52,549 nucleotides of DNA, taken from Candidatus Onthoplasma sp. (GTDB taxonomy: Bacteria; Bacillota; Clostridia; Christensenellales; UBA1242). The notes below the pieces were generated by a model. It saw only the letters and a list, made by a program, of their open reading frames with translations, was not told where the DNA came from and did not search any database. The position numbers and the translations under genes are program-made. Positions 11,536 to 40,345 of this stretch are shown in pieces. The stretch spans positions 1 to 52,549 of the forward strand of contig JAZLCR010000002.1 in the NCBI GenBank assembly GCA_045614345.1. The letters are read 5' to 3'. The first letter of the stretch is position 1. The number at the start of each line of letters is the position of its first letter.

Positions 11536-11562
11536 AGAGTTTTAGCGTAATAGGAGATAAAA

Positions 11563-20103: not shown

Positions 20104-20152
20104 ATTTTTAATAATAAATATTATAATTTTACACAAATTAAAGTGAGGGGTT

Positions 20153-23100
20153 ATGAGAAGAAAAATATCAAGTATTGTTGCTGTGGTGTTTGTTGTGTTT
20201 GCTTGTTTATTTGCGGGCGCCTGTGGGAACAAGTATGAGAAAATGGAATTTAAAGTTTATTATGCATTCTCTGCCGATGCTGAGCAGTGGTATGATGGAA
20301 CTGAGGGTATTTCATTGAACTACAATCCGAATGATGTTTATGATGGAGGAGAGCGAACTTCTCTTATTTTTGATAAAGGTTATGCATCAATATACATCAA
20401 GATTGAAGTTTTGAATGTTAAAGAAAAGGATATTGATTTAATCAGTGTTTCTCCAACATCAACTCAGGGGTTGGATTTTTCTTCTGTAATGGTTTCATCA
20501 AATCAAGTTTTTGAAATTGGTATGAACGGAAATGTTAACTCAATGTTTAAAATATATGAGGCAGAGTCTGGAAGAAACTTTGAATTTTCATTAGTCGTGT
20601 CTAGAGAGCTTCAATCAATCACTGCAAATTTGGATTATAAACCCGCAACAACATTGGAGGGGGTTTTAAATCTTGCGAATTTGGACAATTTAACTTTTGA
20701 ACCAAGAGGTTTAACAAATCAAACAAAAGTTATTTATATGGTTGATTCAATCGGTCATTATCAAGGTGATTTGTATTGTCTTGATGTGGATGCTGAAAGC
20801 GCTGCTTCGTATGTTGGTGTTGTTGATGATGTGTTCTTAAAGATTCACAACACAAATTTCTATTACACTCTCAAAGCAAATGTTGTTCGAATAAAGGCTG
20901 TGTCGGCATATCACGATGGGGCTGTGGATGCTGCGGATGAAATACATGCATTGTTTGATGTGTATTTAACTGAAAGTTATGTTGGCTCTCCTTCGTTGCA
21001 ATTTGTTAATGATGGTGGTCCAAACAAAGATGTTGTAAACGAGATTAATATTTATGAAAATGGCGATAAATATTCAAGGTCTACAGTTCTTGTTAGGATG
21101 GCTGAAGATTTAAGAGATAGTCTATATGCCACTGAGATTGATGTTTATGGTGGCAAGGCGTTCTTTGAAACAGCAATTTACGTAAAGACTCAACAAGGAA
21201 TTTATGAAAAATATAATTTTGATAATCAAGAAAATAATGGGGATAAGTTGGGAATCAATGGTCTCTATATCACAAAGAAAAGCAGGGATGTTTTCGAGTT
21301 TTCAATAGTTAATAGGGATGTGTTAATAAATGAGATCCTTGTTAGATATGAAATTAATGGATTAAACTTCTATCAAAACGCGATCGGAACATTAGCTAGT
21401 GAGTTTCGTATTAGAAAGGGTGTTATGCCAACATGTATAACCATCAATGATGTTATGGATTTATCAGATGGTGATGAGGTGGGGGCAACCATTTATGAAA
21501 CCGCCAATTCTGAATATCAAGGCTTAGTGTTAAAGTTGGCTCCAAATCCAAATGTGAACATTTCGAGTGTTTTAACTCTTGAATTTGAAAATGACAGTTT
21601 ATTTATAACAGATTCAAAGGGCAATGAAATAAAGTCGGGAAATGAAGTTTTAAACAATTCAACAATTTTTGTTAAATTCAAAACCGGTGTTTCTGGTGAA
21701 AAAATCTTAACAATTAAAACATTGTCTTCTCCGGACTATTATAATGGCGAAACTGTTGCTGTTGGTGATAGGGAATATATCACAGTTACATATAAATTAA
21801 ATAAGATCGTTACAGCTGATAGGTTTGAATTTGTTCAAAATCTTGACCTTGGATCAGATGTTGTTGTTGATGAAATGTATGTCAATGCTGAAAATGGATT
21901 TATTTATCCAAAGGTTTATTATACAGGAAGCAGTCTTGAAGCATCAACAATCAAATTGATGTCTAATAATGAAAATTTCAAGTTTTTAAACGGATCAACT
22001 GAATTTTTATTAAGTGATGCCCACACCTTTGAAAGTGGTGTGATGCCAAGCGGTCAAAAATATAGAATCTATAAAATACAAATTGCTGCAAATTTTGCAA
22101 CAACAGCTGGAATTTCTATCTTCGTTAACGATAATTTGATTTCAATTAGGGAAGAATTGCTTGCTAGAGCTGTATATTTAATGTCTAACGATGCTCAAGA
22201 AAGACTTACGCTTCAACCAGTTGAAAGAGGGGTTAAGCAGTTTACGCCTGCTGAAGTTGATAATGGTTATCTAAACTTTGCATTAGTGAAAGGTGAATAT
22301 GTTAATTTTGAAGTTTTAGATGTTTATAATGACAGAACAGATACCATTGCTGGTATTGAGTTGGAAGATGACACAACAATAACTGGTGATGAATTTAACA
22401 CTGGAGCTTTAACTTACAGCAAGAGATCAAACAACTCGTTTGAGGTTTATGCTAAAAAGGCTGGCTACACACATATCTTAAAATTAATCGTGTTATTCCA
22501 TGTTGAAGAATATGAAGTGATTGTAATGAAAGGGAAAACAATCGATGTTCAAGTTGCGGTTTATGACCCAATAAGTATTTTAGATGTTGATGTAACTAGA
22601 AATGAAATTGCTTATTCAAATCCTTACTACACAGAGGCTGGTTCAACAACAATAACATTGAGAGCTCTCACATCAAATTATGGAATGCCTGTTGAAAAGA
22701 TTGTTTTCTATGACGCTTCAGAAAATGTTGAAATAAACAACATTTCTCAAATTAGGGTTAGTAATAATATTTCCAATGCGTATATGGCTGATGTGGAATT
22801 AACTTTCCTTTCAAAAAGCGGACAAGCAATCGATATAATATCAAATGGTTTGTTATACTTATTTGATGGAATTCAAAGTATAGATAAGAGCTTCCTCGAG
22901 GGCTCAATAACTCTTAAGTTAAAAGATTCTATCGATTTAAACAAAATCGTTTTAACAATAACCGCATTGAAATTTGGTGAAAGCTTTGATGTTTCAACAA
23001 GCGTTGAAGTTAAAATTGTTGAAATTGACAAAGCAAAAGGAATTGTTGTTTCTGGAAAATCATTATATGTTGATGAGAATGAAAACATTGTTCCTGAGTT

Positions 23101-26100
23101 GACACTTTCATTTATGAATGTTAAAGAACAAGATGGAAGAGTTGAAAAGAGTTTTAATGCAAATATAAGATTCGAAACATTGAACGTTCCTGAAAACAAA
23201 TTGCGTTTTGATGATGCCAATTCTGCGCTTACCTATATTTTATATAGATATGAAACAGATGCAAATGGTCAACTTGTTAAGGATGCGAATGGTAAGGCTG
23301 TTGCTTTGCCAATTGATAACACATTCTTTGGGGTTTCATTTAATAATGGAATTGTTAATATTAGTGCAATCAAGAAAAATGGTGGTGGTTTATTTAAACT
23401 TGTTTTGGTAACAAAAGATTCTTACAAATTAAAGTATGATCCAAATAGTATTTTGATTGATGAAAGTCATTTTGATACTAAGTGTGAAATTACAATAAGA
23501 GTTGAAGATGGTGAAATTGGGTCAGAATTTACAATCAGGTCTGTTGAAGACTTAAAATCAATCAATAACAACTTAGATAAAAATTTTGTTTTGGCTGCGA
23601 ACCTTGGTGAAGAAGGTGAGGTTGACATTGCTCCTATTGGTGTGATTGGCACAGATGTTTCACAATTCAAGGGTAGTTTGAATGGTGAAAATATCAAAAT
23701 GTTGGTTGGTGGTGGAAGCTTAAGCGAAAACTATTCAATAAATATGAAAATAAGACAATCTGCAAACGATGCAACACATGGTGATCTTTATGGGTTGTTT
23801 GCTTGGTTGGGTGAAGATGCAATAATAAAAAATTTGCATATAAAAGCAGAATTTGAATCAAGTTTCGCTGGTGGAAATGTTGGAATCGTTGCTGGTGTTA
23901 ACGGCGGCACAATTAACAATGTTACAGTTGAAATTAAATCTGGTGATCTTTCGCTTTCAAATGGTGTGAATTTCGGTGGACTTGTTGGACAGAACAATAA
24001 AGTGATAAATGCTTCACGCGTACTTTCAAATGATAAATTAAATTTAGTCGTTGAAAGTGGTGAATATAATATTGGCTTGTTTGCGGGGCTAAATAATCCA
24101 AATGCAACAATCAATGGTAGATATGTTGGAAAAGAAAGTTTAGACAAATTTACATTTGATGCAATAGTGAACTTGTCTGTTGAAAACACCAACACAGCAG
24201 GATCAACAAATCTTCATATTGGTACTATCTCTGGTAAAAACATGGGAATAGTTTCAGGAATGTTGGTTGGCGGTCAAATGGCTGTTTCAAATGAATATCT
24301 CGCTGTATCTCCAAATGGTGTTGTTGGTGGGTTGGTTGGATTATCAACAGGTGCTGGAAACAAGGTTGAATTGTCAACAGCTTTATCGTTAGATGTTAAA
24401 TCAACATCAAACAACATTGAAGTTGGAGGAATTGTTGGGCAGGCAGATGAAACAATTATTGATTATGTTAAATATGTTTCAGCAATAACAAGCTTTAAAA
24501 ATGGTGCATATGACATCCTAGGTTGTGTGGAAGGAAAATCAAAGGTTGGTGGTATTGTTGCTAGTTCAAAAAATGCTTCAATCGTCAATTCAAGTGTTGA
24601 GAGTTTTGTTGATACTGTGTATAACGAAGCAACATTTACATATGAAACATTCTATTCAATTCAAAACGGAACAACAACTGCTGGTTTGGTGGCAAATGCA
24701 GAAGGTACAACTATTAATAACTCATTTGTTGTTGCAAACATCAAATCAACAGGTTCAATCAATTTAACTTCAAACGGATCTGAATCTTTAACTTACTTTA
24801 TTGGTAATGTTGATGGAACTGTTGGTCAAAATAAAACTAACTATAGTGTTGTTAATGCAAAAATCAATGGTGAAAATATTGATGTTGGAGATTATATAGA
24901 TGACACTTTTGTTGTTGATGCAAACACAACAATTTGGACAAACATTTATGTCAATAACGGCGGAAATTATGAAAAGGCAGAATCTTACGTAGATGGAAAA
25001 ATTTATGTTAAATTCAAAGCTGACGAATGGGAAAACTTTGTTGTAACCAAAACAGGAGTTTTACTTTCTGATTGGGAACTCGAAGAAAGTTATAACGTTG
25101 TTAGAATTAGTGGAATTAATTTCTTCTTCCCTTATCTAAACAAAGTGTGGGACAATGGTGGAGTTACTAAAGTTGAGCCTCTTCAAATTGTTAAACCGCT
25201 TTCAATCACTGCAGATATTAATGAAAGTTATGTTTCAAAAATAGATTCAACGTATGTTAAAGAATTCAACTATGCTGATTATGAATCATTAATTGCTGAA
25301 ACAGTAATTGTTAACTACATTAACGGAAACACAGAAGAAAACACTCGAAACATTTTTAGCACTCGAAATCCAGATGGTTCATATAATGATGATGGATTAT
25401 TAAATATTGAAAAATTGCCAGAATATGCACAAGGTGGTTACGACTTTGAAATTTATGGCAAGGGACATTTGTATGCTTATTTCAATGAAAGCAAACAAAT
25501 TGTATTCACTGGAGTAAGCGGTTCAACTCCAATTTTAATTAGAATTTATTCAGTGTTTAATCCAGATATTGAACTTTATGTTGCATTCTACACACAAAGC
25601 TTGTTCACAGAATTAACATTAAGTTCTAGTTCAATTTATCAAGTTGATGAAACTGGATATAAGTATGAAATTAACACATACACTGGTCAAAATAATAAAA
25701 TCATTTCACTTGGCACAAAAAATCAAATTTCAGGAGTGAATTACACATCATTGTTTGATGTTTCTGGGATTGGACAATATTTAAAGTTGGAAAAAACATT
25801 AGATGTTGATACAAAATTGGCTGTTGACACATCGTCAATCGAAAGCATAACACTTAAAATCAGAGATGATTTGTCTGATAGTGAAAAAATTGAGCCAGAT
25901 GAATATGAAGTTGTTACATTTGAACTTTTCATTTTACCTGAATATTTTGGTTCGAATGAAGGTTTGAATCATGTTAATAGTCGAATTTCGCTTGGTGAAG
26001 TTGCCTTAAGGGTGAATTTGTATAATGCAGCAAAGAGCATTAGTATTGATGGTGGCTATAAAGAATTTACAACAAACGATGATTTGAATTTCAATGTTGC

Positions 26101-29100
26101 ATTAACAACAGACTATGTTAACGCTTCAAAATATGGTAGCACTTTGGAAGAACAAAAGAATTCAACAATTAATGAAACTGTTTCAATTGATTTAACTGGT
26201 GATAATGGTGAAATAAAGAACGTTTCTGCTGATTCAGATTATATTATTATTAGATTTGAAATTGTTGAAGGATTATCTCAAGTTGAAGAATTGCTTCGCG
26301 TTAATAATCTTGAAAAATTTGTTCAATTATTTAATTGCAAAATTATAAGCTCACTTCAAATAACAGAAAACGATTCAAAAATAATTGGATATAGATACAA
26401 TGTTACTTTAGAGTTAAAGGATTATCGTAATTATAGATATATTAAAGAAAATATCAAATTTAATTTATTTATTTATGCGTATAGTAATGAAAGCGAAGTT
26501 AACAATGAATCATATCCAATGGAAATTTTAATTAAACCAACAGCGCTTTCAACTGTTAGAATTGAAAACTATAAGGTTGAAACCTTAAAAGTTAACACTG
26601 ATTACACAAGCATTGTTACAAACGACGATGTTCAAACATCAATTGTTGAACCAGGTAGTCTTGGAAATGTGATGATGATATATATGGAACCAACATATTC
26701 AAACATCACAAAGGCAACAATTAAAACAAGCTCATTGTTTGTTCCTTCACTTTCAAAAAATGTTCAATTAAAATTCACTCAATTGGTTCTTGATCAACGT
26801 GGGGCAACAACAGTATTCTCAACTTTAATGGGTGAATTTGCAGAAAATCAAGATGGTGACACATTGAATTTGAGACTTGTTTCGGCAATTAATAATGAAG
26901 GACTTGTTTATAATGGTGTTATTTGTCTTTATATTCAATTAGAACATTTTACAGGCTTAGAAGGAAGTTTGTCGGTTGAACTTAATGCTGAAACTGGTGA
27001 TGGAAAAGTTGTTAAGAGAACCAAAGATTTAATAACAACATATATTCCAGATGTTAAAATCTCATACGATGAAGAAAAGTCAATTTCTGAAGGTAAATAT
27101 CTCATTCAAAAGGGCACTTCAGAAAATCTAGTTAAACTTAAAGTTAGAGGATATCAATTCAACTCAGATCCAAACATTTCAATCGATTGGGATTTAACTC
27201 CAGAAATGGTTGATGGTCAAATTGTTTATGATGTAAATGGTGTTGTTCAATATACTGGTGATTATAGATATGACTACCAGTTAATTGACAATGGTGATGG
27301 AACAAAAACCTATTTGGAAAATCGAAAAGTAATAATCAAAAAGGTTTCTGGAGATTCTTATTTCATAGGTGACTATGTTTCATATTTCTTAAGTAATGGT
27401 TATAAAGATGTTATTTATGATAAGAATGATGATTCATATTCAATGATTGTTTCTTTGAATGTTTCTGCAGACATTCCAACATCATTTAAATTATCAGCAA
27501 GCTTATCACTAACAACAAAGGATGGGGATTTAATAACCAGATCCACAGATCCAATAACTTTCTGCTCAACAGATTATATCTTAAATTCTGTTGCAGTTGC
27601 CGGCTTGACAAGCAGTAATAGCAAAAATATTGCGCTTGAAAAAACAGAAAATGTAACTTTGGCATTCACAACAGATAATGCTGTTAATGATTTGTCCAAT
27701 GTGATTTACGATGAATTGATAAACTATGCTCAAAACAAGGGAGATGCTTTAACAGTTCTTGCTAAAATGTTCTCTTTCTATAGAGGTGGAAATTTAACAT
27801 TTGCAGATTTTGAAATGCACCCAGAATTTGAAGTTGGATTTATAAACAATTTAATCACAATAACCGGTGTTCAAAGATTCTCAAGTTTGGTTAAATTAGA
27901 GATTCATTATAATTATGTTCAAACTAATAATGGCGACTATGTTGTTGATTTCAGCAAAACAGGGAAAGTTCTTGAATTTACGTTTACAATAAATATTTAT
28001 GCTGAAGAAAAAGAAACTGAGGTTCTAATCCATTCGGCAGAAGATATCTATAATTCAAGTTCAGGATCATGGAATTTGAAAGAAGGTGAACATTATGTTC
28101 TTATGAACGATATCACTCTTGAAAATGTTGTTCCAATCACAACAGCAATTGGTAGTTTTGATGGTAACAATAGAGTTATTTCAATCAAGAGTTTTAAAGT
28201 TGACACAAACAACTCAGACTATGGCCTATTTGCAACTGTTGGAACATACCAAGTTGAAGACAAGCAAACAGAAACTCAAATAACTCGTCAAACAATTTTG
28301 AAGAACATTATTGTTAACTATGGCGACTTTGAGGGAACACTTGCATTAAACAACGACATTACAACTGTAAACTTTGGTGGATTGGTTGCAAGAAACAATG
28401 GTGGATTAATTTATAACTGTGATGTTATGAATCTCACTCTTAATGATAAAGTTGTTTCGCTTATTGTTTCAAGTTCTGCGAAAGTAACATTTGGTGGACT
28501 TGTTGGTGAAAACAATGGAATAATAACAAACTCACGTGTTGGTCGTGAAAGTTACACTCGCGTAACAGCGAGCAAAGATTCGGAAAGAACAAGTGAAGTT
28601 AATGCTGGTGGTTTGAGTTTTGAAATTTTCAACAAAATGCAAGAAAATGAAAAAACCGTTAACCCATTTGAAATTGTGGCAGGTGGTTTTGTTGGTGTGA
28701 ATGGTGGAACAATTTCAACATCTTATGTTGCAAACACCAATTTAATTAACTATTCGACAAATGAAAGAACAAACATTACTTCAGGATTTGTTGGAAACAA
28801 TTCAGGAACAATTTCATATTCTTATGCAAAAGCCGATGAACAAACAATCTCAAGTTCACAACCTTATTCAAAAGGTTATGTTGTCGACAACAAAGGAAAT
28901 GGTATCGTTTCAGGATTTGCGTATAACAACACTGGAACAATATCAAATTCATATTCAAATATAGAATTAAAAACTTTGTCTGCATATATTTCTGGTTTTG
29001 TTTATAACAATAGTGGAAAAATTGTGGAAAGTTATGCAGCAACAACAATGAACTCTGGTTCGGTTGATAGCTTTGCGGAACAGCCTTTTGTTGGTGTTAG

Positions 29101-32100: not shown

Positions 32101-35100
32101 AACAAAACAAGATGAGAGCGGTGAAATCTTAGTTGCTGGTCTTGTTGGATATTATAGTTTAGGAAACCCAACATCAACTTCTGGAATTTCAAATTGTAAT
32201 GCTTCAACCAACATTTCAACATTTAAGGGTTCAGACAAACTAGAAGTTAAGGGACCTATGGCTGTTGTAATGTCTGCAGGTGCAGGTAGACTTGATCTTA
32301 AAGCAACAATGAAAGAATGTTTATTCATTGGTGAAATCAATACAGATAAAGAAGAAGTGTCAATTCCAATCCTTTATGCTGGTGGAGCAGTTGGAAGAAT
32401 TCAATCAACTGAAATTGTTAATTTGCAAGAAATAACATCAAATGTTGTTATTTATGCAGGAAGCACATACACAACAAACCTATATGTTGGTGGATTGATT
32501 GGTTCTGTTAACAAAGCAGAAATTTCATATTCAACTTCATGGGGAAGAATTGTTCCAATAGCTGGTGATAGTAGTGTTGAAATTTTAGCAGGAGGTCTAA
32601 TTGGATTAATAGCACAACAAGAAGGTGATCGAATTGACGTTCTCAATTCTTACACAATTTCAAGTGTGTTGCCAGATCAAGTTGAGGGCAAAGGTTTAAC
32701 AAAATTAGGCACTGGCGCTTTGGTTGGAAAAATCAAAGATCCAAAAGTTGTTAATTTCAATAAGGATAGCGTTTTCTATTCAAGTGATTATTCACTTTGT
32801 ATTGATGAAAACTATATAAATTCCAATCCTTTGGGTAACAACCTTTCAGCAGAAACAATGTTTAACAACAAAGATTGGCAAGAAAAATTAAGAACAGAAA
32901 ATGGCAGTGAAAACTCAATTTGGAATCAATTTGTGGTTTATTCGCCGGATGATGTGAGAATGCCATATCAAACATCTCTAAACGACGATATGATGAATTA
33001 TGGAATAATCCAAAAGGTGAGCGGAAATAAATATGATTACATTGAAGGATCTGCAATGCGTCCTGAACAAATTAATTCAGACACAACGTTCGATCAAGAT
33101 AATTACAAATATTATTTGTTAAAACCAAACGCAGATGGCAAAACTCCAACATTCACCAATGCATTATATGGAATTTTAATTTGCAAGGATGTAACATATG
33201 AAAATGCATTCAAAGTTGGAACATTAAGTCAAATTGATCCAATTGTTGATTATGATATTGATGGAACATACTTTGGAATAATTTCAGCGGTTAGAAAAAA
33301 TTCTGCAATTTCAAATATGAATATTGTTATCAATGAACCAATTTCTTCAAATGGAAACGTTGGTATTATCGCGGGAATCAACAATGGCGTGATATTCAAC
33401 TGCTCAGTTCAAGGAACTGCAATTGAGATTAGCGGTTCAGGAAACTACGGATTAATTTCATGTTCAAATAAAGGAATAATTTCAAACTGTTATTCAACAG
33501 CTGAAATAAACAAATTAGTAAGTGCAAATCTTGGTGGAATAACTTATGCAAATAGTGGAAAACTTGTTTCAAATTATTTCACAGGATATATTGAAAACGA
33601 AAATTCAACAGCAGCAGGAATTGTGGTTCAATTCAATGAAGGTTATGTTTATAATAACTATATGGCTGGTGTTGTAACAAAAATCAAAGAAGATGGCAAC
33701 GCTTTCAATGCCAGTGGTAATATCTCAGGTGAAAACAACTTTATTGATTCATATTCAGATATTGAATATAATCACAAAGAATATGATGGTGCAACACAGG
33801 CAGAAAGGGAAGCAAAGGAAGCAGAAGAACATGCAAAATTAATGCCAATTTCAACTGCAGAGTTAATGTCTAACATAAAAAAAGACACAGGCGCTGAGTT
33901 GTTGAAAGGAAAATGGCGTGTTTCTGTTGACTCTTCTTATGGATTTATAAATAAGGATGGAGTGGCTGATCCAGAATCGTTCTTTGGGTTTAACTATAAC
34001 TATCCGGTTTATAGAATTAACAAGTTGATGGGTAACATTGTTAATGACATAAAAAATCAACTTCCAACAGGAACAGGAATAACAAATGAAAATCTTGACA
34101 CTTTGGATGAGAGATATCAAAAAATTGTTAATGGTGTCGGAGCACCAAATCAAGAGTATTTGGATGCATTTAAAATTCCTCATTTGGGAGTTTTAACTTC
34201 AATCCAAAACTTGTTAGATAAAAGCAGAAACTATGTTGTTATCTATGACATGAATGGTTTGAACAAAGCGTGGAAACCAATTGGAACATATGGAGAAGTA
34301 AACAACTTTGCAAATCCAGATGAATATGGTTTCAGTGGTGTGTTTGTAACGAACGAATATTATAACTTGAATTTAAACAAATCAAAAACAATTTCAAATT
34401 TGGGTGAGAAAGGTTTGTTTGCAAATATTGACCAAGCATACTTTAGTGATATCAAATTTGGAGGATTATCAAATCTTTCATCAAGTGGTGCATTTGGAAC
34501 AAACATTCTTCCAACAATGGAAGACAATGCAAATGTTTATGTTAACAATGTGATGTTTGTTGAAAATTCAGTGATAACAATTGATTCTAGTTCAACATCG
34601 GGTGGATTGTTTGGAACAGTTGAGGGGTATTTAAAAATTACTTTATTTAGCAACAAAACTGAAGATAACACTCCAGCAATGATTTTCGAAGGCGGTAATT
34701 ATGTTGGACTTATTGCCGGAACTTTGGAAGATGGAAAAATTGAGTTGGTTAGCGGAGATTATTTTGTTAACTTCAATGGTTGTGAAAACACAGGTGGCGT
34801 TGTTGGATCAATGAAAAGTAAGTCATTAGGTGCTGAAATCATTGGTGGTGACAACACAATAACAATATTCACAAACGTAGGAAGCAATGAATTTAACACA
34901 ATGATTGGTGGCGTTGTTGCCAAAACAGAATATGTTGATGCAAATAATCCAACCGGCAAATTGACAATAAGTAACATCACAGTTTGCTTTGGTGGAACAT
35001 TATTACAATTCAACACAAGTTATTATGGTGGAATTGTTGCACAAGTGAATGCATCAACAGAAGTGAATGATTTCATAATGACATCTGAAGCTGGAAAAGT

Positions 35101-38100
35101 TGAGTTCTTAACGCGCGGAAGCAACAAACATTTCGGTTTACTTGCAGGCTCACAAAATGCTGATTTAAAAGTTACAAGTTTCACCATGAATTCAATTTCA
35201 GAAGTTAATGTAACATGCAATAATGATGCTGGCGGTGAAACATTTGAATATGAAACAACAACAATGGGTATTGGTCTGTTGGTTGGAAGCTTAAAAAATT
35301 CAAGCTTAACAGTTGATTCACAATCTATCAATGAAATATCAATAACTTCAAACGCAATTCCAAACCTTGGTTCATTAATAGGTTACATTGAAGACGATGG
35401 AACTGGAAGCGGTGTTAAAATTAATGTCCCAAAACCTGAAGTGTTAATAAAACTTCAAGGAACAACAAATGTTGGTGGATTAGTTGGACACATGAAAGGA
35501 AACATCTACAACGATGTTACATTTGCAGATGAGTTGCTAAAAGACATGGACTTTGCTCAAATTATCATCAAAGGTTCAGATGATGATTCAATGAAGTATC
35601 GCAACTTTGGTGGAATCTTTGGAAGATTTGATGGGGAAAGTTCAGTTCAAATAACAAATAAGAACGAAATTATAATCGATGAAGAAAAAGGTGTTGCATA
35701 TAATGTCGGCGGTGTTATTGGAATGCTTGCAGAAGGAACAAAGGTTGCAAACCTTGTAAACGAAAAAGACTTTAAAGAGGATAACACATTCTCAGAAACA
35801 ATTATAACAAACGTAAACGGAACAAAAGAGATAACAAGATTTATTAACGTTGGTGGTGTTGTTGGTTACGCTAAAAATGCAGAAATCACAAATGTAACAA
35901 ACAATGCAATAATCAAAGGTTATCAAAATGTTGGAGGAATTGTTGGAAACCTTTCTGGAGATCTTGCAAAATTGGAAAATTCTTCGGGAGTGTCTGAACA
36001 CAATTCTGTTGATGAGGCAGGTGAAAATGATGATGTTATATGGCTTTCATCAAACAAAAAACTTCACGCAACAAAAGATAGCAACGAAAATGCGGGCGAA
36101 GTTTACGGAATAATTAACGTTGGTGGAGCGGTTGGATTGGCTGATGAATCAAAAGTTCTAAAAGTTAGCACAATGGCAAATGTTTATGGAAACACCAATG
36201 TTGGTGGTTTGATCGGTTTGGCAGACAAACTTGCACAAATAGATCAAAACTATGTTTACAAATCTGAGGATGAAGAAACAGTTGTTAAAGGTGTTTACTA
36301 TGATCTTAAAATAACAGAAGTAAACAACGTTACTGGCGAAACAAAAATAACAGCAAAAACAATAACTCCAACAGGTGTAGGTGGAGTTGTTGGAACAATA
36401 AACAATTCATCAGTAACACACAATGCCATTAATGAAGTTTGTGTTGCTTCAACCGAAGAAACTTTTGGAAAGAATTTGGGAGAAATTGAAGCAATTTCAA
36501 CAATCAGTAACTACATGATGGATGTCAAAGTTGGTGACAGCAATAGCCTTGATAGTGTTAAAAATTTCTTTGATCTATCAAAACCTGCTAACTTGGCTAA
36601 CAAATTAAAATTTTCAGACGTCAAAACAGGTTTCGGTGGATTTGCAGGAACAATCGACACTGAATCAATGGGGAAAATAGCAGATGCTGCAACAGGCGAG
36701 AAAGCGATTGCTAAAAACTACATAAAAGATATCAACATCGAAGCACAACTCGGAATAAATGTTGGAACATATTTGGGTGTTTATAGATATTCAGGAAATA
36801 ACACTGAAGGAACAAAGAACTTCATGGATGTTCCAATGCTCCTTGGAACCAACAACTTGGTTGATGGTGGATATAATGTTGGTGGAATTGTTGGTTACGT
36901 TGATTACGTTTCAGGAGAAATGTTAAATGTTTTAGACAACAAAAATCTCAAGGGTTATAACTCAGAAATTAAATTGCAATCAAGACTTGGTGCAATGTAT
37001 GTTGGTGGACTTGCTGGAAAAACAGATGCCAACACAATTGAAGCCTTTAACATTTCATCAAGTGAGGCAGAGGTTAACATAACGATTTCAACAAACTTGA
37101 GTTATTATGTTGGTGGCTTGATTGGTCGTGCTGAAGTTGGCAAAAATTATGCTCGAATAGCCTCAATCAAAGGTAATCTAGGTGATTGGAACAACGATGG
37201 ACCTGATGGCGAAGCTGGAACAGCTGATGATGCTCCAACAATGATTGCAGGAACAGATGCTGTTGTTGTTTCTGGTAACGATGAAAGAGATAACTTTGGT
37301 GCATTAATTGGAATGCTTAAATCTGCTAAGCGTGAATCTGGAATGGAAATAACTGTTGAAGGCAATCACAACAAGTTGTTCACAATTAATGTGATTGAAA
37401 ACAGCAACTATGTTGAAGGTTCAACCGTATTTAACTCACTTGAAAATGAAAATCAAATAGATTTATATGCACAAGCGTATTATATAAATATGGATAGTTT
37501 CAACATTTCGGGTTCAAAAAATGCGGATTATCATGGAGATGGAAAAACAAATCTGTTCACAAACAAAGCAAGCGGTTGGGCAAAAGAATATACAATTGCA
37601 AAAACCATTCAACGTTGCATAACGATGGATGATATTGAAAACAAAACAGATGGAGTTAATCCAAAATGGGATTCAATTGCAACAATTTATGATGCAAGCA
37701 ATATCAGACTCGTTGATGTTAATGGGGATTCAATTGAAAGAACAATGTATGAAAGAACTGCTGGAGAACCATTAATTTATGCATCAACCTATATTGCTGA
37801 ACCAGTGCCAGATCCTTTGAATGAATGTCTCATGACAAATAAAAACTGGAACACAACATATGGGACGAAGAAAAAGAAACAAGAATTATTTGCTGTTCTT
37901 GGTTATCAAAAGGATGCTAAGCAGGTATTAGAAGGAACAAGAGAACATACTTATGATTCTCTTCAAGAGGTTGGATTCATATTTGAAACATATGAAGATG
38001 AAGGTGAAGATAACAAAGTTATGTTCATTAAAACAATAAACATGACGAATGATAACAAGGCAAGTTCAGGGTCAATATTTAGAATGGATGGAAGAGCTGA

Positions 38101-40345
38101 TGAGTTGCCAGAAGGTAAGTTCGATCCGAAAAAAGAAGCAGTTAAGGATTTTGTAGTAACCGTATTCTTTATCATAGTCAGCCTTATAACAGCTGGTTAT
38201 GGTTCAATAATTCTGGGCGCAGCTGCATCGGTAATGTCAAAAGTTGGGGCTGCAATTAAATTTATTTGGAAAACTTTTAAAGCAATGAAGGTGTTTACAC
38301 AAATCGCAATCATAGCAGCTTTATTTGGTGTAGTTGTTATGGGAATAGATTTAAACAAATCAAACTCACAAGACTTCTATAAACAAGTTGAATATCAAGG
38401 AACAGGATTCCTTTCATCAACATATTCACGTGAAATAAGATATAATGAGGGTGTTGTTCAATACTCATCAGATGATTATGTTATTATAGGTGGAATGGCG
38501 TATCAGCCACATTCAAGGCAAAGACCTAGAGATTTCTATTCAGAACAATATTTATTATTAAGAGTTAAAAACAATGGGGATGGCACCGTTTCTGCGCATG
38601 ATAGCCATGTTGTTGTTTATATCAATGAAGATCAATACAAAGGATACACAACAACTCCATACTATTTCTATAATGAAGAGACAGGTGATAGAAGTAATGA
38701 TACTATTCCATGCATAACAGAAGACTCAAAAATCTATGCAGTTTATAAAAAATACGCTATTCATGAAGGAACATTCTGGATCAATGCACTTGCAGGAACT
38801 GTTGAACAAATTCCAACATCAGAATTCTTCAGACCAGATGCTAGCATAAGAGAATCGCTATACACTTCAACCGGTGCAAATAGCTATATTTATGGAAAAT
38901 GGAATGGTTCGAACTATGAGTTCTTAACTAAGGACCAAACACCAGAATTTTCTGATAATCATGTTACATCTTGTGATGCATCAAAGGCTATTGTAAGTTA
39001 TCCAGGTAAAGAAATGGAAGTAACAGAAAGTTCAACTCGTGTTTTGGATAAAAAATTTAAATATGATGCTAGCAATGATACAACAGGCCTCGTTGAAGGT
39101 TATGACTATATGAAAAATGCTTATTATGCAGCAGCAGGTTCATATGGGGCATTCACAAAATATGCAACCTTTAAACATTTGGAAACAGGAATGCCAGCAG
39201 ATTATGATCAAGATGATAATGCCGGAACAAAATATGTTATGTTGGTTGAGAAAGTAATAGAAAACGGCGTTCATATTAGAAACGTTGAGCATTATTATCA
39301 AATAACAAATGCTGATTTTAAAGGTTATGCCGATGAATCATACACGCATAAAGCGGAAATGGAAACAGTTCCAACTGGAGAGGGTATTATGTTTGAAGTT
39401 CATCCATATTCATTCACGAATCCATATGATAGTCTAATAACAGATTCTTACGATGGAAATACTTACAGATTGGATGATTCTGAAGGAGTACCACACAAAG
39501 TCACATATTTCCTTTATGTTGGAGGTTTCCAAGTTCAAACAATTGACGGAACACCTTATGCCTACACAGAAATATCTAAACAAGACTATCGTTCAGCAGT
39601 AACTTTGTTCTATAAACCGGCTGGGGGAACAGCGGAAGATGTATTGGAAATCACAAGAATTAAAACAAAGGATGTTTGGTACGATGGAAATGATGGCTGG
39701 GCTAGTGAGTATCAACCGTGTTCTTATGCATTAATTTCGCAGTATTGGGATGGTGGCCTACATATTTCTGGAACAAAAAATTTCTGGGGAGTAACCAGAA
39801 CAGAAGAAATGTGGCTTGCAACAAAAGATTTATATTTAGATAGAGAGTGCACTGAGAAAAATAAGGTGTCAAATGTATTCTGCAGAAGTACATCTGAAAC
39901 AATAAAAGTTAGTGTTGAGAAGAAAGAAGGAAATTATGAGGAAGTGGCAATTTTCAAACTTTACATGATTAATAAAAACTTCGATCTTGAAACAAATGGT
40001 GTGATCAGCCGAACTTACGTGTCTTATAATAACGATTTGGAAAATGGTGAGAATTACACTTATAACATGTACTTATCATATCAAAACGGAGCATGCGAGT
40101 TCTACACAAGATTTAGATATTTCAATTCATGGAGAAATACAAAAACAGTTTCTAACTTCAACGAAATTTGGAGCAAAAACGGCGGTGGTTATTATGATCT
40201 TATTGTTGAAAATGGACGTCCAAATGGCAGAAAAACAGTTTTAGTTGAAACAGTTAAAGTTTCAATGTCTGGAAAGTGTTATCGCTCAACAATAGACAGT
40301 GACAGTGGTGCGTATATTCAAGGTGGTTCTATTACGGTTAAATAG
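20153..40345 (+). CDS. giant surface protein, 6730 aa: lipobox-like signal, Ig-like N-terminal region, at least six GLUG-motif modules, C-terminal two-helix TM hairpin and 665-aa Tyr/Trp-rich domain
   Basis: Single uninterrupted 20,193-nt ORF. The N-terminus MRRKISSIVAVVFVVFACLFAGA|C has Cys24 at nt 20222-20224. GLUG modules start near nt 23518, 28020, 29440, 31160, 33280 and 34170. Each opens with a conserved entry element such as GSEFTIRSVEDLKSI, EVLIHSAEDIYNS or GSENNPHTISSVDEF, followed by dozens of xGG(L/I/F/V)(V/I/A)G repeats. No LPXTG motif was seen. Confidence 0.93.
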   Translation: MRRKISSIVAVVFVVFACLFAGACGNKYEKMEFKVYYAFSADAEQWYDGTEGISLNYNPNDVYDGGERTSLIFDKGYASIYIKIEVLNVKEKDIDLISVSPTSTQGLDFSSVMVSSNQVFEIGMNGNVNSMFKIYEAESGRNFEFSLVVSRELQSITANLDYKPATTLEGVLNLANLDNLTFEPRGLTNQTKVIYMVDSIGHYQGDLYCLDVDAESAASYVGVVDDVFLKIHNTNFYYTLKANVVRIKAVSAYHDGAVDAADEIHALFDVYLTESYVGSPSLQFVNDGGPNKDVVNEINIYENGDKYSRSTVLVRMAEDLRDSLYATEIDVYGGKAFFETAIYVKTQQGIYEKYNFDNQENNGDKLGINGLYITKKSRDVFEFSIVNRDVLINEILVRYEINGLNFYQNAIGTLASEFRIRKGVMPTCITINDVMDLSDGDEVGATIYETANSEYQGLVLKLAPNPNVNISSVLTLEFENDSLFITDSKGNEIKSGNEVLNNSTIFVKFKTGVSGEKILTIKTLSSPDYYNGETVAVGDREYITVTYKLNKIVTADRFEFVQNLDLGSDVVVDEMYVNAENGFIYPKVYYTGSSLEASTIKLMSNNENFKFLNGSTEFLLSDAHTFESGVMPSGQKYRIYKIQIAANFATTAGISIFVNDNLISIREELLARAVYLMSNDAQERLTLQPVERGVKQFTPAEVDNGYLNFALVKGEYVNFEVLDVYNDRTDTIAGIELEDDTTITGDEFNTGALTYSKRSNNSFEVYAKKAGYTHILKLIVLFHVEEYEVIVMKGKTIDVQVAVYDPISILDVDVTRNEIAYSNPYYTEAGSTTITLRALTSNYGMPVEKIVFYDASENVEINNISQIRVSNNISNAYMADVELTFLSKSGQAIDIISNGLLYLFDGIQSIDKSFLEGSITLKLKDSIDLNKIVLTITALKFGESFDVSTSVEVKIVEIDKAKGIVVSGKSLYVDENENIVPELTLSFMNVKEQDGRVEKSFNANIRFETLNVPENKLRFDDANSALTYILYRYETDANGQLVKDANGKAVALPIDNTFFGVSFNNGIVNISAIKKNGGGLFKLVLVTKDSYKLKYDPNSILIDESHFDTKCEITIRVEDGEIGSEFTIRSVEDLKSINNNLDKNFVLAANLGEEGEVDIAPIGVIGTDVSQFKGSLNGENIKMLVGGGSLSENYSINMKIRQSANDATHGDLYGLFAWLGEDAIIKNLHIKAEFESSFAGGNVGIVAGVNGGTINNVTVEIKSGDLSLSNGVNFGGLVGQNNKVINASRVLSNDKLNLVVESGEYNIGLFAGLNNPNATINGRYVGKESLDKFTFDAIVNLSVENTNTAGSTNLHIGTISGKNMGIVSGMLVGGQMAVSNEYLAVSPNGVVGGLVGLSTGAGNKVELSTALSLDVKSTSNNIEVGGIVGQADETIIDYVKYVSAITSFKNGAYDILGCVEGKSKVGGIVASSKNASIVNSSVESFVDTVYNEATFTYETFYSIQNGTTTAGLVANAEGTTINNSFVVANIKSTGSINLTSNGSESLTYFIGNVDGTVGQNKTNYSVVNAKINGENIDVGDYIDDTFVVDANTTIWTNIYVNNGGNYEKAESYVDGKIYVKFKADEWENFVVTKTGVLLSDWELEESYNVVRISGINFFFPYLNKVWDNGGVTKVEPLQIVKPLSITADINESYVSKIDSTYVKEFNYADYESLIAETVIVNYINGNTEENTRNIFSTRNPDGSYNDDGLLNIEKLPEYAQGGYDFEIYGKGHLYAYFNESKQIVFTGVSGSTPILIRIYSVFNPDIELYVAFYTQSLFTELTLSSSSIYQVDETGYKYEINTYTGQNNKIISLGTKNQISGVNYTSLFDVSGIGQYLKLEKTLDVDTKLAVDTSSIESITLKIRDDLSDSEKIEPDEYEVVTFELFILPEYFGSNEGLNHVNSRISLGEVALRVNLYNAAKSISIDGGYKEFTTNDDLNFNVALTTDYVNASKYGSTLEEQKNSTINETVSIDLTGDNGEIKNVSADSDYIIIRFEIVEGLSQVEELLRVNNLEKFVQLFNCKIISSLQITENDSKIIGYRYNVTLELKDYRNYRYIKENIKFNLFIYAYSNESEVNNESYPMEILIKPTALSTVRIENYKVETLKVNTDYTSIVTNDDVQTSIVEPGSLGNVMMIYMEPTYSNITKATIKTSSLFVPSLSKNVQLKFTQLVLDQRGATTVFSTLMGEFAENQDGDTLNLRLVSAINNEGLVYNGVICLYIQLEHFTGLEGSLSVELNAETGDGKVVKRTKDLITTYIPDVKISYDEEKSISEGKYLIQKGTSENLVKLKVRGYQFNSDPNISIDWDLTPEMVDGQIVYDVNGVVQYTGDYRYDYQLIDNGDGTKTYLENRKVIIKKVSGDSYFIGDYVSYFLSNGYKDVIYDKNDDSYSMIVSLNVSADIPTSFKLSASLSLTTKDGDLITRSTDPITFCSTDYILNSVAVAGLTSSNSKNIALEKTENVTLAFTTDNAVNDLSNVIYDELINYAQNKGDALTVLAKMFSFYRGGNLTFADFEMHPEFEVGFINNLITITGVQRFSSLVKLEIHYNYVQTNNGDYVVDFSKTGKVLEFTFTINIYAEEKETEVLIHSAEDIYNSSSGSWNLKEGEHYVLMNDITLENVVPITTAIGSFDGNNRVISIKSFKVDTNNSDYGLFATVGTYQVEDKQTETQITRQTILKNIIVNYGDFEGTLALNNDITTVNFGGLVARNNGGLIYNCDVMNLTLNDKVVSLIVSSSAKVTFGGLVGENNGIITNSRVGRESYTRVTASKDSERTSEVNAGGLSFEIFNKMQENEKTVNPFEIVAGGFVGVNGGTISTSYVANTNLINYSTNERTNITSGFVGNNSGTISYSYAKADEQTISSSQPYSKGYVVDNKGNGIVSGFAYNNTGTISNSYSNIELKTLSAYISGFVYNNSGKIVESYAATTMNSGSVDSFAEQPFVGVSNAGVLLSTGTIENSYYLMRSETDNPYTDGDKDYAKALNRENFQNSENLIGFAFVLTNSKLEREQGIWSYYTTDGKRRILPELMNANIVAHSYRFVVETPAGDKVLTNASSYGEGSENNPHTISSVDEFNNVFTSHLNSENEFVGFVRFINNINFNDDEKAIKTRTKFTLGSRLATTSVEGNGMSINGIYLDVEDAVVEEIGLFAKIENAYVKNLNLNFATPKTDEQFSTTTATYSGGLAGRINNSAIININLVGKNTTLTGSNFVGGVAGLVTGNSLIYGIETNLRVKTGVRNSALYYNERDYKDLGREDNYALYAKKLSYVGGVAGVLDLTSRAGIEYNVQFIDVRGDQMTPKTLDGQPEATILASYAGGVAGYASANTTSFKLRYFVGQNDMIHGSEVAGGIFGVSLGRIVASQVAAEENTQFDYDTAYGDYVLSLNNLDQDAKIQTSKVGNMSLLQGDKYVGGLIGVGIGSTVVASYSKASIYSGSTVGGLLGVSVASTISYSYAIPFVNFHSGLTYAGGLIGAAYEVDNISPERNKVISEYEALFKLKNTIVNNEPKPTNIQSTYSTIILDNEKLNEQNNVVFDYVVANFDADSIASNNNQNLIYVYAGTINYLNDVNSVVKNKTEESNDSSKLELHRLFMVEDPSQIVSFQEVFAGWAIIKHWTLNEQKYFPLLNDKLVDNYINIYDGDDFEMLENNPYGKFRIVDNITVTEEDSNWIVSGRFMGTLIGEKIGDSTRPVVTVILKPKTANETTGFFKETFNATLSNIEFKWQPIDLSVVENVTMVSTLTCKDTNSLISNIEVRGCVDPSISLEGYIIDSDKSIGGFGGIVGEMTNTNILDTVFSGKVRATIKGVVGDAVYVGGTAGFAQTNSTIKVDGKEEEVRERTAVINNTQVGVPLAGNSSITSFDLTIDQNNEKDVYIGGSVGKADIVAISNNKVGDLKYEGGEDYKYITIDVKANEFDQDRLAIGGITAWAKDGMISKCDALTKINLVGTTKQDESGEILVAGLVGYYSLGNPTSTSGISNCNASTNISTFKGSDKLEVKGPMAVVMSAGAGRLDLKATMKECLFIGEINTDKEEVSIPILYAGGAVGRIQSTEIVNLQEITSNVVIYAGSTYTTNLYVGGLIGSVNKAEISYSTSWGRIVPIAGDSSVEILAGGLIGLIAQQEGDRIDVLNSYTISSVLPDQVEGKGLTKLGTGALVGKIKDPKVVNFNKDSVFYSSDYSLCIDENYINSNPLGNNLSAETMFNNKDWQEKLRTENGSENSIWNQFVVYSPDDVRMPYQTSLNDDMMNYGIIQKVSGNKYDYIEGSAMRPEQINSDTTFDQDNYKYYLLKPNADGKTPTFTNALYGILICKDVTYENAFKVGTLSQIDPIVDYDIDGTYFGIISAVRKNSAISNMNIVINEPISSNGNVGIIAGINNGVIFNCSVQGTAIEISGSGNYGLISCSNKGIISNCYSTAEINKLVSANLGGITYANSGKLVSNYFTGYIENENSTAAGIVVQFNEGYVYNNYMAGVVTKIKEDGNAFNASGNISGENNFIDSYSDIEYNHKEYDGATQAEREAKEAEEHAKLMPISTAELMSNIKKDTGAELLKGKWRVSVDSSYGFINKDGVADPESFFGFNYNYPVYRINKLMGNIVNDIKNQLPTGTGITNENLDTLDERYQKIVNGVGAPNQEYLDAFKIPHLGVLTSIQNLLDKSRNYVVIYDMNGLNKAWKPIGTYGEVNNFANPDEYGFSGVFVTNEYYNLNLNKSKTISNLGEKGLFANIDQAYFSDIKFGGLSNLSSSGAFGTNILPTMEDNANVYVNNVMFVENSVITIDSSSTSGGLFGTVEGYLKITLFSNKTEDNTPAMIFEGGNYVGLIAGTLEDGKIELVSGDYFVNFNGCENTGGVVGSMKSKSLGAEIIGGDNTITIFTNVGSNEFNTMIGGVVAKTEYVDANNPTGKLTISNITVCFGGTLLQFNTSYYGGIVAQVNASTEVNDFIMTSEAGKVEFLTRGSNKHFGLLAGSQNADLKVTSFTMNSISEVNVTCNNDAGGETFEYETTTMGIGLLVGSLKNSSLTVDSQSINEISITSNAIPNLGSLIGYIEDDGTGSGVKINVPKPEVLIKLQGTTNVGGLVGHMKGNIYNDVTFADELLKDMDFAQIIIKGSDDDSMKYRNFGGIFGRFDGESSVQITNKNEIIIDEEKGVAYNVGGVIGMLAEGTKVANLVNEKDFKEDNTFSETIITNVNGTKEITRFINVGGVVGYAKNAEITNVTNNAIIKGYQNVGGIVGNLSGDLAKLENSSGVSEHNSVDEAGENDDVIWLSSNKKLHATKDSNENAGEVYGIINVGGAVGLADESKVLKVSTMANVYGNTNVGGLIGLADKLAQIDQNYVYKSEDEETVVKGVYYDLKITEVNNVTGETKITAKTITPTGVGGVVGTINNSSVTHNAINEVCVASTEETFGKNLGEIEAISTISNYMMDVKVGDSNSLDSVKNFFDLSKPANLANKLKFSDVKTGFGGFAGTIDTESMGKIADAATGEKAIAKNYIKDINIEAQLGINVGTYLGVYRYSGNNTEGTKNFMDVPMLLGTNNLVDGGYNVGGIVGYVDYVSGEMLNVLDNKNLKGYNSEIKLQSRLGAMYVGGLAGKTDANTIEAFNISSSEAEVNITISTNLSYYVGGLIGRAEVGKNYARIASIKGNLGDWNNDGPDGEAGTADDAPTMIAGTDAVVVSGNDERDNFGALIGMLKSAKRESGMEITVEGNHNKLFTINVIENSNYVEGSTVFNSLENENQIDLYAQAYYINMDSFNISGSKNADYHGDGKTNLFTNKASGWAKEYTIAKTIQRCITMDDIENKTDGVNPKWDSIATIYDASNIRLVDVNGDSIERTMYERTAGEPLIYASTYIAEPVPDPLNECLMTNKNWNTTYGTKKKKQELFAVLGYQKDAKQVLEGTREHTYDSLQEVGFIFETYEDEGEDNKVMFIKTINMTNDNKASSGSIFRMDGRADELPEGKFDPKKEAVKDFVVTVFFIIVSLITAGYGSIILGAAASVMSKVGAAIKFIWKTFKAMKVFTQIAIIAALFGVVVMGIDLNKSNSQDFYKQVEYQGTGFLSSTYSREIRYNEGVVQYSSDDYVIIGGMAYQPHSRQRPRDFYSEQYLLLRVKNNGDGTVSAHDSHVVVYINEDQYKGYTTTPYYFYNEETGDRSNDTIPCITEDSKIYAVYKKYAIHEGTFWINALAGTVEQIPTSEFFRPDASIRESLYTSTGANSYIYGKWNGSNYEFLTKDQTPEFSDNHVTSCDASKAIVSYPGKEMEVTESSTRVLDKKFKYDASNDTTGLVEGYDYMKNAYYAAAGSYGAFTKYATFKHLETGMPADYDQDDNAGTKYVMLVEKVIENGVHIRNVEHYYQITNADFKGYADESYTHKAEMETVPTGEGIMFEVHPYSFTNPYDSLITDSYDGNTYRLDDSEGVPHKVTYFLYVGGFQVQTIDGTPYAYTEISKQDYRSAVTLFYKPAGGTAEDVLEITRIKTKDVWYDGNDGWASEYQPCSYALISQYWDGGLHISGTKNFWGVTRTEEMWLATKDLYLDRECTEKNKVSNVFCRSTSETIKVSVEKKEGNYEEVAIFKLYMINKNFDLETNGVISRTYVSYNNDLENGENYTYNMYLSYQNGACEFYTRFRYFNSWRNTKTVSNFNEIWSKNGGGYYDLIVENGRPNGRKTVLVETVKVSMSGKCYRSTIDSDSGAYIQGGSITVK
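38150..38347 (+). other. predicted transmembrane hairpin inside the 6730-aa protein (aa 6000-6028 and 6047-6065)
   Basis: FVVTVFFIIVSLITAGYGSIILGAAASVM, then the amphipathic stretch SKVGAAIKFIWKTFKAMK, then VFTQIAIIAALFGVVVMGI. These are the only long hydrophobic stretches after the signal peptide. Confidence 0.7.

Follow-up and report, generated by a model that had tools for sequence, protein, structure and literature searches.

A 6,730-residue GLUG-type beta-helix protein, putatively anchored at both ends, as a candidate adhesive tether of gut Clostridia

The window analysed here is a stretch of 52,549 nucleotides (nt) from Candidatus Onthoplasma sp. contig JAZLCR010000002.1, read on the forward strand, which encodes a protein of 6,730 amino acids (aa), hereafter the giant. 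The features of its gene are listed below, where identity denotes the mean identity between the window protein and its orthologues in the respective region.

20075..20103, plus strand: sigma-70-like promoter, TTGACT-17 nt-TATAAT, matching 11 of 12 consensus positions
20143..20150, plus strand: Shine-Dalgarno-like GTGAGGGG, read from the sequence, ending 2 nt before the ATG at 20153
20153..40345 (stop codon included), plus strand: open reading frame (ORF) of 20,193 nt and 6,730 aa without internal stop
20153..20224, plus strand: signal peptide with lipobox, aa 1-24, with basic n-region, hydrophobic core and Cys24
20225..23509, plus strand: N-terminal region, aa 25-1119, fold not recognised; identity 33%
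23510..24952, plus strand: beta-helix module 1, aa 1120-1600, six coils, entry element matching that of the neighbouring protein at 97% hhalign probability, GLUG score of 13 bits (sub-threshold); identity 36%
24953..28024, plus strand: middle region, aa 1601-2624, fold not recognised, no Pfam or PDB profile match and no GLUG coils; identity 38%
28025..29437, plus strand: beta-helix module 2, aa 2625-3095, based on AlphaFold2 and Foldseek, four coils, best conserved of all regions; identity 58%
29438..31147, plus strand: beta-helix module 3, aa 3096-3665, in the same AlphaFold2 model, seven coils, GLUG score of 21.1 bits in its tile; identity 50%
31148..33022, plus strand: beta-helix module 4, aa 3666-4290, six coils, GLUG score of 23.9 bits (best at aa ~4109-4131), entry element matching those of modules 1 and 3 at 92%; identity 35%
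33023..33832, plus strand: putative short module 5, aa 4291-4560, weak, with no more than relaxed G-x-[IV]-x-G...N motifs recognised by eye; identity 39%
34133..37552, plus strand: beta-helix module 6, aa 4661-5800, ~1,140 aa, 17 coils, GLUG scores of 20.2 and 25.1 bits in tiles; identity 33%
38138..38359, plus strand: predicted transmembrane (TM) hairpin, aa ~5996-6069, consisting of TM1, a Lys-rich loop and TM2, hydropathy peaks 2.1-2.45; identity 13%
38360..40342, plus strand: C-terminal domain, aa 6070-6730 (660 aa), Tyr-rich (9.8%), family-specific and fast-evolving; identity 21%
40416..40445, plus strand: intrinsic terminator, hairpin with 13-bp stem (-19.8 kcal/mol) and U-tract

An earlier reading of this stretch (the original prediction) had proposed an uninterrupted 20,193-nt ORF with its own near-consensus promoter and a strong terminator, and all three stand. 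The promoter sits in a 208-nt AT-rich gap that is common to the divergent tilS gene. The stability of the terminator hairpin corresponds to z = -5.57 relative to shuffled sequences, none of 200 shuffles being equally stable, and a consensus scanner overlooked it, as the T-run is drawn into the stem by the A/U extension. Since out-of-frame stops are frequent at low G+C, and the G+C of the region is 30-36%, an open frame of this length is not a product of chance. Thus, the view that one gene, transcribed on its own, encodes a giant secreted surface protein is supported.

The sequence comes from a metagenome-type contig, which raises the alternative of a chimera of collapsed paralogues, the outcome that the original prediction had named as refuting it, or of a decaying pseudogene that is still open by luck. 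The gene contains no tandem repeats and no direct DNA repeats longer than 50 nt, the sole direct repeats being 25-50 nt long with 60-84% identity and located at GTTGGTGG... (VGG) codons, and BLASTP of the protein against itself reveals no self-similarity at E <= 1e-3; there is therefore nothing in the sequence to provoke assembly collapse or chimerism. In addition, a search with aa 1-5000 returned an identical protein (P0001) and ~20 full-length orthologues of 6,529-7,095 aa, with 25-50% identity over ~100% coverage, from NCBI, JGI, ENA and Logan assemblies. One orthologue cluster holds HJD05423.1, a 'hypothetical protein' of Candidatus Onthoplasma faecipullorum, and the NCBI taxonomy places Onthoplasma within Christensenellales. 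Because these independent assemblies yield collinear proteins of equal length in a conserved neighbourhood, an assembly chimera is excluded. Conservation extends to the signal peptide, the order of the modules, the hairpin and the C-terminal domain, and 6,730 open codons at 32% GC are impossible by chance, so that the probability left to an artefact of either kind is practically negligible. The giant ORF is a real, intact single gene.

The GLUG character of the modules was assessed by scores at or above the Pfam gathering cut-off for GLUG (PF07581; 20.5 bits), by a hidden Markov model (HMM) built from the giant's own G-G-[LIV]-[VA]-G coils and by comparison of the entry elements of the modules. 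The Pfam scan that had been suggested for the giant places GLUG above the cut-off, with 32.1 bits for aa 5001-6730, and the 800-aa tiles that pass reach 21.1 bits (modules 2/3), 23.9 bits (module 4) and 25.1 bits (module 6). The coil HMM detects 40 coils of the GLUG type, grouped in five clusters, with 6/4/7/6/0/17 coils in modules 1-6 and none elsewhere. The entry elements of modules 1-4 and that of the 1,070-aa protein encoded next to the giant are linked, directly or via this neighbour, at hhalign probabilities of 90-97%, and that of module 6 is linked to module 3 at 87%. For module 5, by contrast, neither Pfam nor the coil HMM gives a match, and its entry element shows no relation to the rest (probability <=16%). 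Five beta-helix modules are thus well supported, whereas the fifth of the six proposed is marginal. At least six GLUG modules had been predicted, each opening with a conserved entry element; this is upheld for five of them (modules 1-4 and 6) by scores, coils and entries, but not for module 5. The last module, predicted to span about 1,000 aa, indeed comprises ~1,140 aa.

An AlphaFold2 model of modules 2 and 3 (aa 2625-3665), built with 13 orthologues as alignment, has a mean predicted local distance difference test (pLDDT) score of 85.9 and a predicted TM (pTM) score of 0.86, and displays regular strands of 3-6 residues that form a beta-solenoid. The best Foldseek match in the PDB is a 'putative IgA1 protease' from Bacteroides ovatus (3n6z; E = 3e-4, probability 1.0), followed by the streptococcal and Gemella IgA1 proteases 6xjb, 7uvl (0.93-0.95) and 7uvk, within a range of 0.63-0.95. 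Right-handed beta-helices make up the lower matches (Ag43, Hbp, PfbA, SRRP, chondroitinase B and tailspikes), and a viral structure library likewise returned a phage 'putative IgA1 protease' together with other right-handed beta-helices. The model therefore argues for a right-handed beta-helix fold like that of solved GLUG-bearing domains, so that the beta-helix fold suspected for the giant is borne out by structure prediction for the two most conserved modules. PDB sequence searches with both halves of the giant were empty, as were PDB profile searches with modules 2-3 and with the N-terminal, middle and C-terminal regions.

The two ~1,000-aa regions that flank module 1 resisted assignment to any family. 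Neither the single sequence of residues 25-1119 nor a profile of 15 sequences has a counterpart in Pfam, NCBIfam or the PDB, and Pfam scans of the first 1,100 aa in nine orthologues produced nothing above sub-threshold noise. Profile-profile comparison of 150-aa blocks from the N-terminal and middle regions revealed no repeated domain, only the entry-element match. The description of aa 25-1119 as Ig-like in the original prediction consequently finds no support in Pfam, PDB profiles or internal repeats, and 'Ig-like repeats' were dropped for this region. Within the middle region, a conserved core is present at aa 2101-2300 (44-53% identity).

The structural resemblance to IgA1 proteases and the beta-helix fold both raise the possibility of an enzymatic function. 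The giant is not an M26 IgA1 protease of the ZmpA/ZmpB/ZmpC type, a candidate that we rejected as neither HExxH nor HxxEH occurs anywhere in its 6,730 aa and an M26 domain is absent; indeed, Pfam and NCBIfam scans of the giant found neither M26 nor any other peptidase family, and no G5 match. More generally, the giant could be a surface enzyme, namely a beta-helix polysaccharide depolymerase, comparable to phage tailspikes or pectate-lyase-fold enzymes, or a protease, which would gain nutrients by attacking a partner's or host's wall, capsule or mucus. The fold class is common to lyases, hydrolases and tailspikes, which appear among the lower Foldseek matches, ~2,800 aa of the giant are of unrecognised fold, and cell-wall degradation has been proposed for such domains in the giant proteins of ultra-small, predicted-predatory Omnitrophota (bioRxiv 10.1101/2023.11.21.568195). 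However, the fold comes closest not to lyases but to the GLUG-type, non-catalytic beta-helices of IgA1 proteases, and the lyase and tailspike matches have E >= 0.01 and probabilities mostly <= 0.25 (0.51 for chondroitinase B, 7o78_B). No catalytic Pfam or NCBIfam family is found in the whole giant, and Beta_helix, Pectate_lyase, glycoside hydrolase family 28 and similar families are without Pfam match at E <= 10 in any tile. Moreover, the invariant residues of aa 2625-3665, mostly Gly, Asn, Phe, Tyr and Leu, are of the type typical of solenoid packing. We therefore consider an enzymatic role unlikely.

The N-terminus of the giant carries the lipobox-like signal that had been predicted. The signal sequence MRRKISSIVAVVFVVFACLFAGAC/GNK (cleavage context ...LFAGAC/GNK) possesses an n-region, an h-region and a lipobox Cys within the first ~35 residues, as expected of a lipoprotein, although position -3 of the lipobox is Ala and not Leu (a relaxed lipobox). 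In the orthologue alignment, C24 and G25 do not vary and A23 and Y28 hardly do, and the motif F-A-[SGT]-A-C-G-[DN]-[KR]-Y is kept in nearly all orthologues. Neither lgt nor lspA is located in the 52.5-kb window.

Towards the C-terminus, two hydrophobic helices (aa ~5996-6025 and 6044-6069) are joined by the Lys-rich loop SKVGAAIKFIWKTFKAMKVF, and both helices appear, with low confidence, in an AlphaFold2 model. The hydrophobic hairpin is present in 18 of 20 orthologues, with a loop of very variable length whose net charge, counted by eye, lies between about +1 and +15 in 15 of these 18. In the region aligned to aa 5985-6085, the two remaining orthologues (P0011 and P0013) lack the hydrophobic hairpin and have an amphipathic Trp/Asp-rich sequence instead, and their tails are 30% identical to each other; the C-terminal membrane anchor thus appears to have been lost or replaced in one sub-clade. 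No LPXTG motif (LP.[TSA]G) is found in the giant, and Pfam gives no SLH, choline-binding, CW_binding, SH3b, LysM or CWB2 match. The absence of HExxH and LPXTG therefore indicates that the giant is neither an IgA1 protease nor a sortase substrate. The original prediction of a protein without LPXTG, SLH or choline-binding anchor was correct to this extent, but it overlooked the two hydrophobic helices, which would provide an anchor some 660 residues before the C-terminus, and the C-terminal domain that follows them.

Across all orthologues, the C-terminal domain is homologous and collinear, with 21-30% identity and BLAST E-values of 1e-5 to 1e-121, in agreement with phmmer --nobias. An exhaustive HMMER search with the C-terminal region gave eight matches, all of them C-terminal fragments of orthologous giants, and no other protein type. 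This count is an underestimate because the default bias filter hides full-length targets: matches embedded in 7,000-aa targets are dropped, whereas --nobias recovers all orthologues. Similarly, a word-index search with the C-terminal 741 aa was empty and missed its own parent, and is a false negative rather than evidence for an orphan; negatives obtained for sub-domains of giant proteins by word-index or default HMMER searches are not to be read as absence. The AlphaFold2 model of the C-terminal domain is poor (pLDDT 50.5 after re-alignment), and the domain has no PDB match, no match to a known toxin family and no fold match, the Foldseek matches of so poor a model being meaningless.

A variable domain preceded by a hydrophobic hairpin is reminiscent of contact-dependent delivery, in which a polymorphic-toxin-like filament would present a variable C-terminal effector and the hairpin would enter the membrane of a partner. 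In favour of such a system, the part after aa 5900 is the least conserved, with 13-25% identity (25% in the pre-TM region) compared to 33-58% elsewhere, and the hairpin directly precedes the domain. The homology and collinearity of the C-terminal domains in all orthologues are, however, not those of swapped cassettes, no known toxin family is found among them, and the Lys-rich loop favours retention in the membrane of the producer. No immunity gene was seen after the giant, where the 360-nt gap that holds the terminator and the next promoter was not scanned for short ORFs. On the strength of the mutually homologous domains and, with this limit on the gap, of the missing immunity gene, a polymorphic toxin was rejected, and we regard contact-dependent delivery as very improbable.

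Conservation peaks at aa 2901-3000 (63% identity), within the two central modules. Compared with the closest relative (L018), prfA is 95% identical, prmC 74%, murC 72% and the neighbouring GLUG protein 71%, whereas the C-terminal third of the giant is only 37-51% identical, the fast divergence to be expected of an exposed surface molecule.

A scan with the N-terminal alignment located 17 giant loci in species representatives of GTDB, all of which belong to uncultured Clostridia, Christensenella or Onthoplasma and all but two of which are labelled metagenome-assembled genomes (MAGs). Their sample names are mostly gut or faecal (Hadza, Nepal, chicken (CHK), sheep colon, rabbit). The upstream gene order comprises a 3,077-aa lipoprotein, a SipW-like signal peptidase, an 871-aa protein, two small proteins, a 272-aa protein, sufC, sufD, tilS (opposite strand) and the giant, and is kept in most of those loci that reach far enough. 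The downstream order in relatives, recovered via homologues of the 1,070-aa neighbour at two loci (L018 and L019) with giants of 6,687 or 6,830 aa, is giant, ~1,060-aa GLUG protein, spoVG, murC, rpmE, prmC and prfA, with the S10 ribosomal operon several genes beyond prfA; the window matches this order up to the gene after prfA. The conserved synteny on both sides therefore indicates that the giant is a vertically inherited, single-copy resident of a core-genome region.

This fixed core-genome position and the presence of the gene in every related locus would also suit an envelope scaffold or coat, S-layer-like or wall-spanning, which is anchored at both ends and shapes or protects a minimal-genome cell. 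The putative anchors at both ends are in keeping with such a coat, as is the location among large surface-protein genes, three of which (20.2, 9.2 and 3.2 kb) fill 62% of the window. Yet a single 6,730-aa monomer with six differing, non-repetitive modules is unlike known lattice-forming coat proteins, and no SLH, CWB2 or similar wall-binding domain emerged from the Pfam scans. Rapid divergence is compatible with a scaffold as well as with an adhesin. We regard a scaffold as possible, though doubtful.

Three further features of the window lie on either side of the giant gene.

2302..17006, plus strand: conserved upstream operon, same order in most related loci
40707..43919, plus strand: 1,070-aa membrane-anchored protein with two GLUG modules, own promoter (12/12) at 40647-40674
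48426..50033, plus strand: 535-aa protein, C-terminal half of low complexity and Lys/Thr/Ala-rich

The 1,070-aa protein has an N-terminal membrane anchor and the canonical entry element GSQENPYYI...FNGTFNGNGHTI, and at least 199 homologues with 37-75% identity, some of which match Pfam PF05342 (Peptidase_M26_N). Its divergence is much slower than that of the giant, and it could be a partner or base component. Exact look-ups of this protein and of the window's PrfA returned no record. Where the window has the 360-nt gap between the two genes (40346-40706), L018 (8609-9658, minus strand) and L019 (8676-9638, minus strand) carry an opposite-strand gene for a protein of 320-349 aa. Neither Pfam nor NCBIfam has a match for the 535-aa protein; relatives encode counterparts of 524-542 aa behind prfA, with 51-59% identity.

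Within the upstream operon, the 3,077-aa lipoprotein bears the signal ...FMFGC/DK and is without Pfam match, while the signal peptidase I is of the SipW/archaeal type, with a TIGR02228 score of 49.9 bits that lies slightly below the cut-off. The operon also encodes the 871-aa protein, which is a membrane protein, the 272-aa protein and two proteins of ~220-250 aa in which N-terminal anchors are followed by SYFSATTS or NSWFTSEV. We take these motifs to recall SipW-dependent signals of the TasA/camelysin kind, and the operon may specify a second, fibre-like surface structure.

Two remoter giants, P0022 (5,747 aa) and P0023 (5,591 aa), have lipobox-like N-termini (LAGC and VGC, respectively). They match only 18-19% of the query length, at 28-29% identity, and may represent giant GLUG-type lipoproteins in other lineages.

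Taking the architecture together with analogy to other systems, we favour, with a probability of roughly 60%, a giant envelope-anchored surface protein that acts as a doubly anchored, rapidly evolving adhesive fibre or tether to a partner. Following Sec export, Cys24 would be lipidated and the N-terminus held in the cell's own membrane. The ~5,970 residues after the lipobox comprise five well-supported, possibly six, right-handed GLUG-type rods together with two ~1,000-aa regions of unrecognised fold. The hairpin would act as a stop-transfer and re-insertion pair in the same membrane, with the basic loop predicted to be cytoplasmic because of the positive-inside rule; with the loop on the cytoplasmic side, both the ectodomain and the C-terminal domain would therefore lie outside, and the protein would be fixed to the membrane by its two ends. 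The rods would serve as stiff spacers and binding surfaces that reach through and past the wall. With ~3,500 residues in beta-helix modules, and ~22-30 residues and 4.8 Å per coil, they would extend over tens of nanometres, which should suffice to cross and exceed a Gram-positive wall; a Mur-family ligase, labelled murC, is encoded in the window. The fibre would tie metabolically dependent cells to a partner, whether another microbe, host mucus or epithelium, and the central, best-conserved beta-helix pair (aa 2625-3665) would be the likely ligand-binding part.

Several points weigh against this tether. Double anchoring is not universal, since P0011 and P0013 are without the hairpin. The confident model covers only 1,041 of the 6,730 residues, and the ~2,800 aa of the N-terminal, middle and C-terminal regions, which have no recognisable fold or family, could hide an unrecognised activity. 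We infer adhesion from architecture and analogy only, and the membership of the host in the GTDB family UBA1242 is deduced from orthology and synteny.

Halfway along the ectodomain, at ~aa 3010, the sequence is close to its peak of conservation in modules 2-3, which suggests, speculatively, a folded-back fibre with a conserved, ligand-binding tip. In this more specific version of the adhesive tether, both ends would reside in the cell's own membrane, and the conserved tip, with its apex at ~aa 3010, would recognise a specific partner cell or host ligand. The protein would then be the principal attachment organelle that sustains an obligate, partner-dependent life of sub-1-Mb gut Clostridia (UBA1242), and its fast-evolving, membrane-proximal C-terminal domain might link it to the envelope or to uptake, a proposal that we advance tentatively and hold to be rather improbable in this form.

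Onthoplasma, which a 2025 paper assigns to UBA1242 within Christensenellales, is represented by MAGs of 0.76-0.92 Mb at 80-90% completeness. The family, which comprises uncultured gut Clostridia and is widespread, has genomes of ~0.8-0.9 Mb that are without standard transporters, ATP synthase and parts of glycolysis, and its members are predicted to be obligate symbionts or parasites living at the expense of other cells (PMC12306168). In chicken caeca, UBA1242 rises with age and is negatively associated with body weight (PMC13155120). Neither of these papers mentions the giant protein, and we found no description of it in the literature on the GLUG motif and on giant proteins. In a genome of the size reported for UBA1242, the 20.2-kb gene would represent 2-2.5% of the total; if the host is a member of this family, the giant is, because of this share, the two large surface-protein genes that adjoin it and a divergence far faster than that of its neighbours, the obvious candidate for a contact apparatus.

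The original prediction had called the protein exceptional for Bacillota, which was overstated in view of at least 20 full-length orthologues and 17 GTDB species, and bacterial proteins of >30,000 aa have been reported for Firmicutes among other phyla (bioRxiv 10.1101/2023.11.21.568195). Rather, the unusual aspect is the apparent host lineage, with its reported sub-1-Mb genomes. The protein is set apart from comparable systems by the number of GLUG modules, the combination of lipobox and hairpin topology, the three large regions without known family and its syntenic occurrence across the sampled genomes (17 loci of species representatives) of a lineage for which genome reduction is reported. 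If the host belongs to UBA1242, the giant offers a handle on the symbiont or parasite hypothesis for partner-dependent gut Clostridia, and it would extend to Bacillota a pattern discussed earlier mainly for Omnitrophota, namely giant surface proteins in small-genome, host-dependent lineages. For protein science, it contributes ~2,800 residues in its N-terminal, middle and C-terminal regions that lie outside known families and solved structures.

Among known giant surface proteins, Ebh of Staphylococcus aureus is made up of helical repeats in tandem, and its C-terminus is a short cytoplasmic tail. Like the giant, it has an export signal, an ectodomain of thousands of residues and a membrane-spanning segment near the C-terminus, and is not anchored by sortase; the giant differs from Ebh by its beta-helix modules, its lipobox, its helical hairpin and the 660-aa domain that follows the hairpin.

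With the M26 IgA1 proteases of S. pneumoniae (6xjb/7uvl) and G. haemolysans (7uvk) and with BACOVA_03286 of B. ovatus (3n6z), the giant shares the GLUG motif and the fold of modules 2-3. Of the Pfam families GLUG PF07581 and Peptidase_M26_N PF05342, the latter is found in some homologues of the 1,070-aa neighbour. In the pneumococcal enzyme, the N-terminal domain, which is mainly a GLUG-type beta-helix, binds the Fab of IgA1, and so plays a protein-binding role, whereas the catalytic residues H1604, E1605, H1608 and E1628 reside in other domains (PMC7695701). The giant possesses a module of the binding type without the protease. Unlike the M26 proteases, the giant has no metalloprotease domain, HExxH, G5 or LPXTG, but five to six modules instead of one, three to four times the size, and a lipobox together with a C-terminal hairpin.

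The Giant1-5 proteins of Apilactobacillus kunkeei, which comprise 3,000-8,000 aa each and occupy 6% of a 1.5-Mb genome, are likewise giant, fast-evolving surface proteins of a host-associated, small-genome member of the Bacillota, with beta-solenoid domains, clustering with other giant genes and a proposed role in adhesion (PMC12863079). Giant1-4 have one N-terminal SRRP-like solenoid each, all five have SH3b-like, wall-binding C-termini and no transmembrane segment, and the remainder consists of long alpha-helical repeat rods in Giant1-3 and of an array of beta-sheet domains in Giant4 (PMC12863079). In contrast, the present giant is almost all beta, non-repetitive in sequence and putatively membrane-anchored, and we saw no sequence homology between them.

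The Omnitrophota giants, too, are proteins of very large size that lie mostly outside the cell, are associated with the membrane and contain long beta-helix regions; they occur in small-genome, host-dependent lineages and are near-ubiquitous in a restricted clade (bioRxiv 10.1101/2023.11.21.568195). They exceed 30,000 aa and reach 85,804 aa; when full-length, they contain numerous transmembrane regions and, in most cases, SecA-like domains, with peptidase- or dockerin-type domains in some types (bioRxiv 10.1101/2023.11.21.568195). The present giant, by contrast, is without those domains in our scans and belongs to a different phylum (Bacillota, Clostridia). By analogy, the giant would thus work like other giant Gram-positive surface fibres, such as A. 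kunkeei Giant1-5 and Ebh, and resembles the giants of Omnitrophota.

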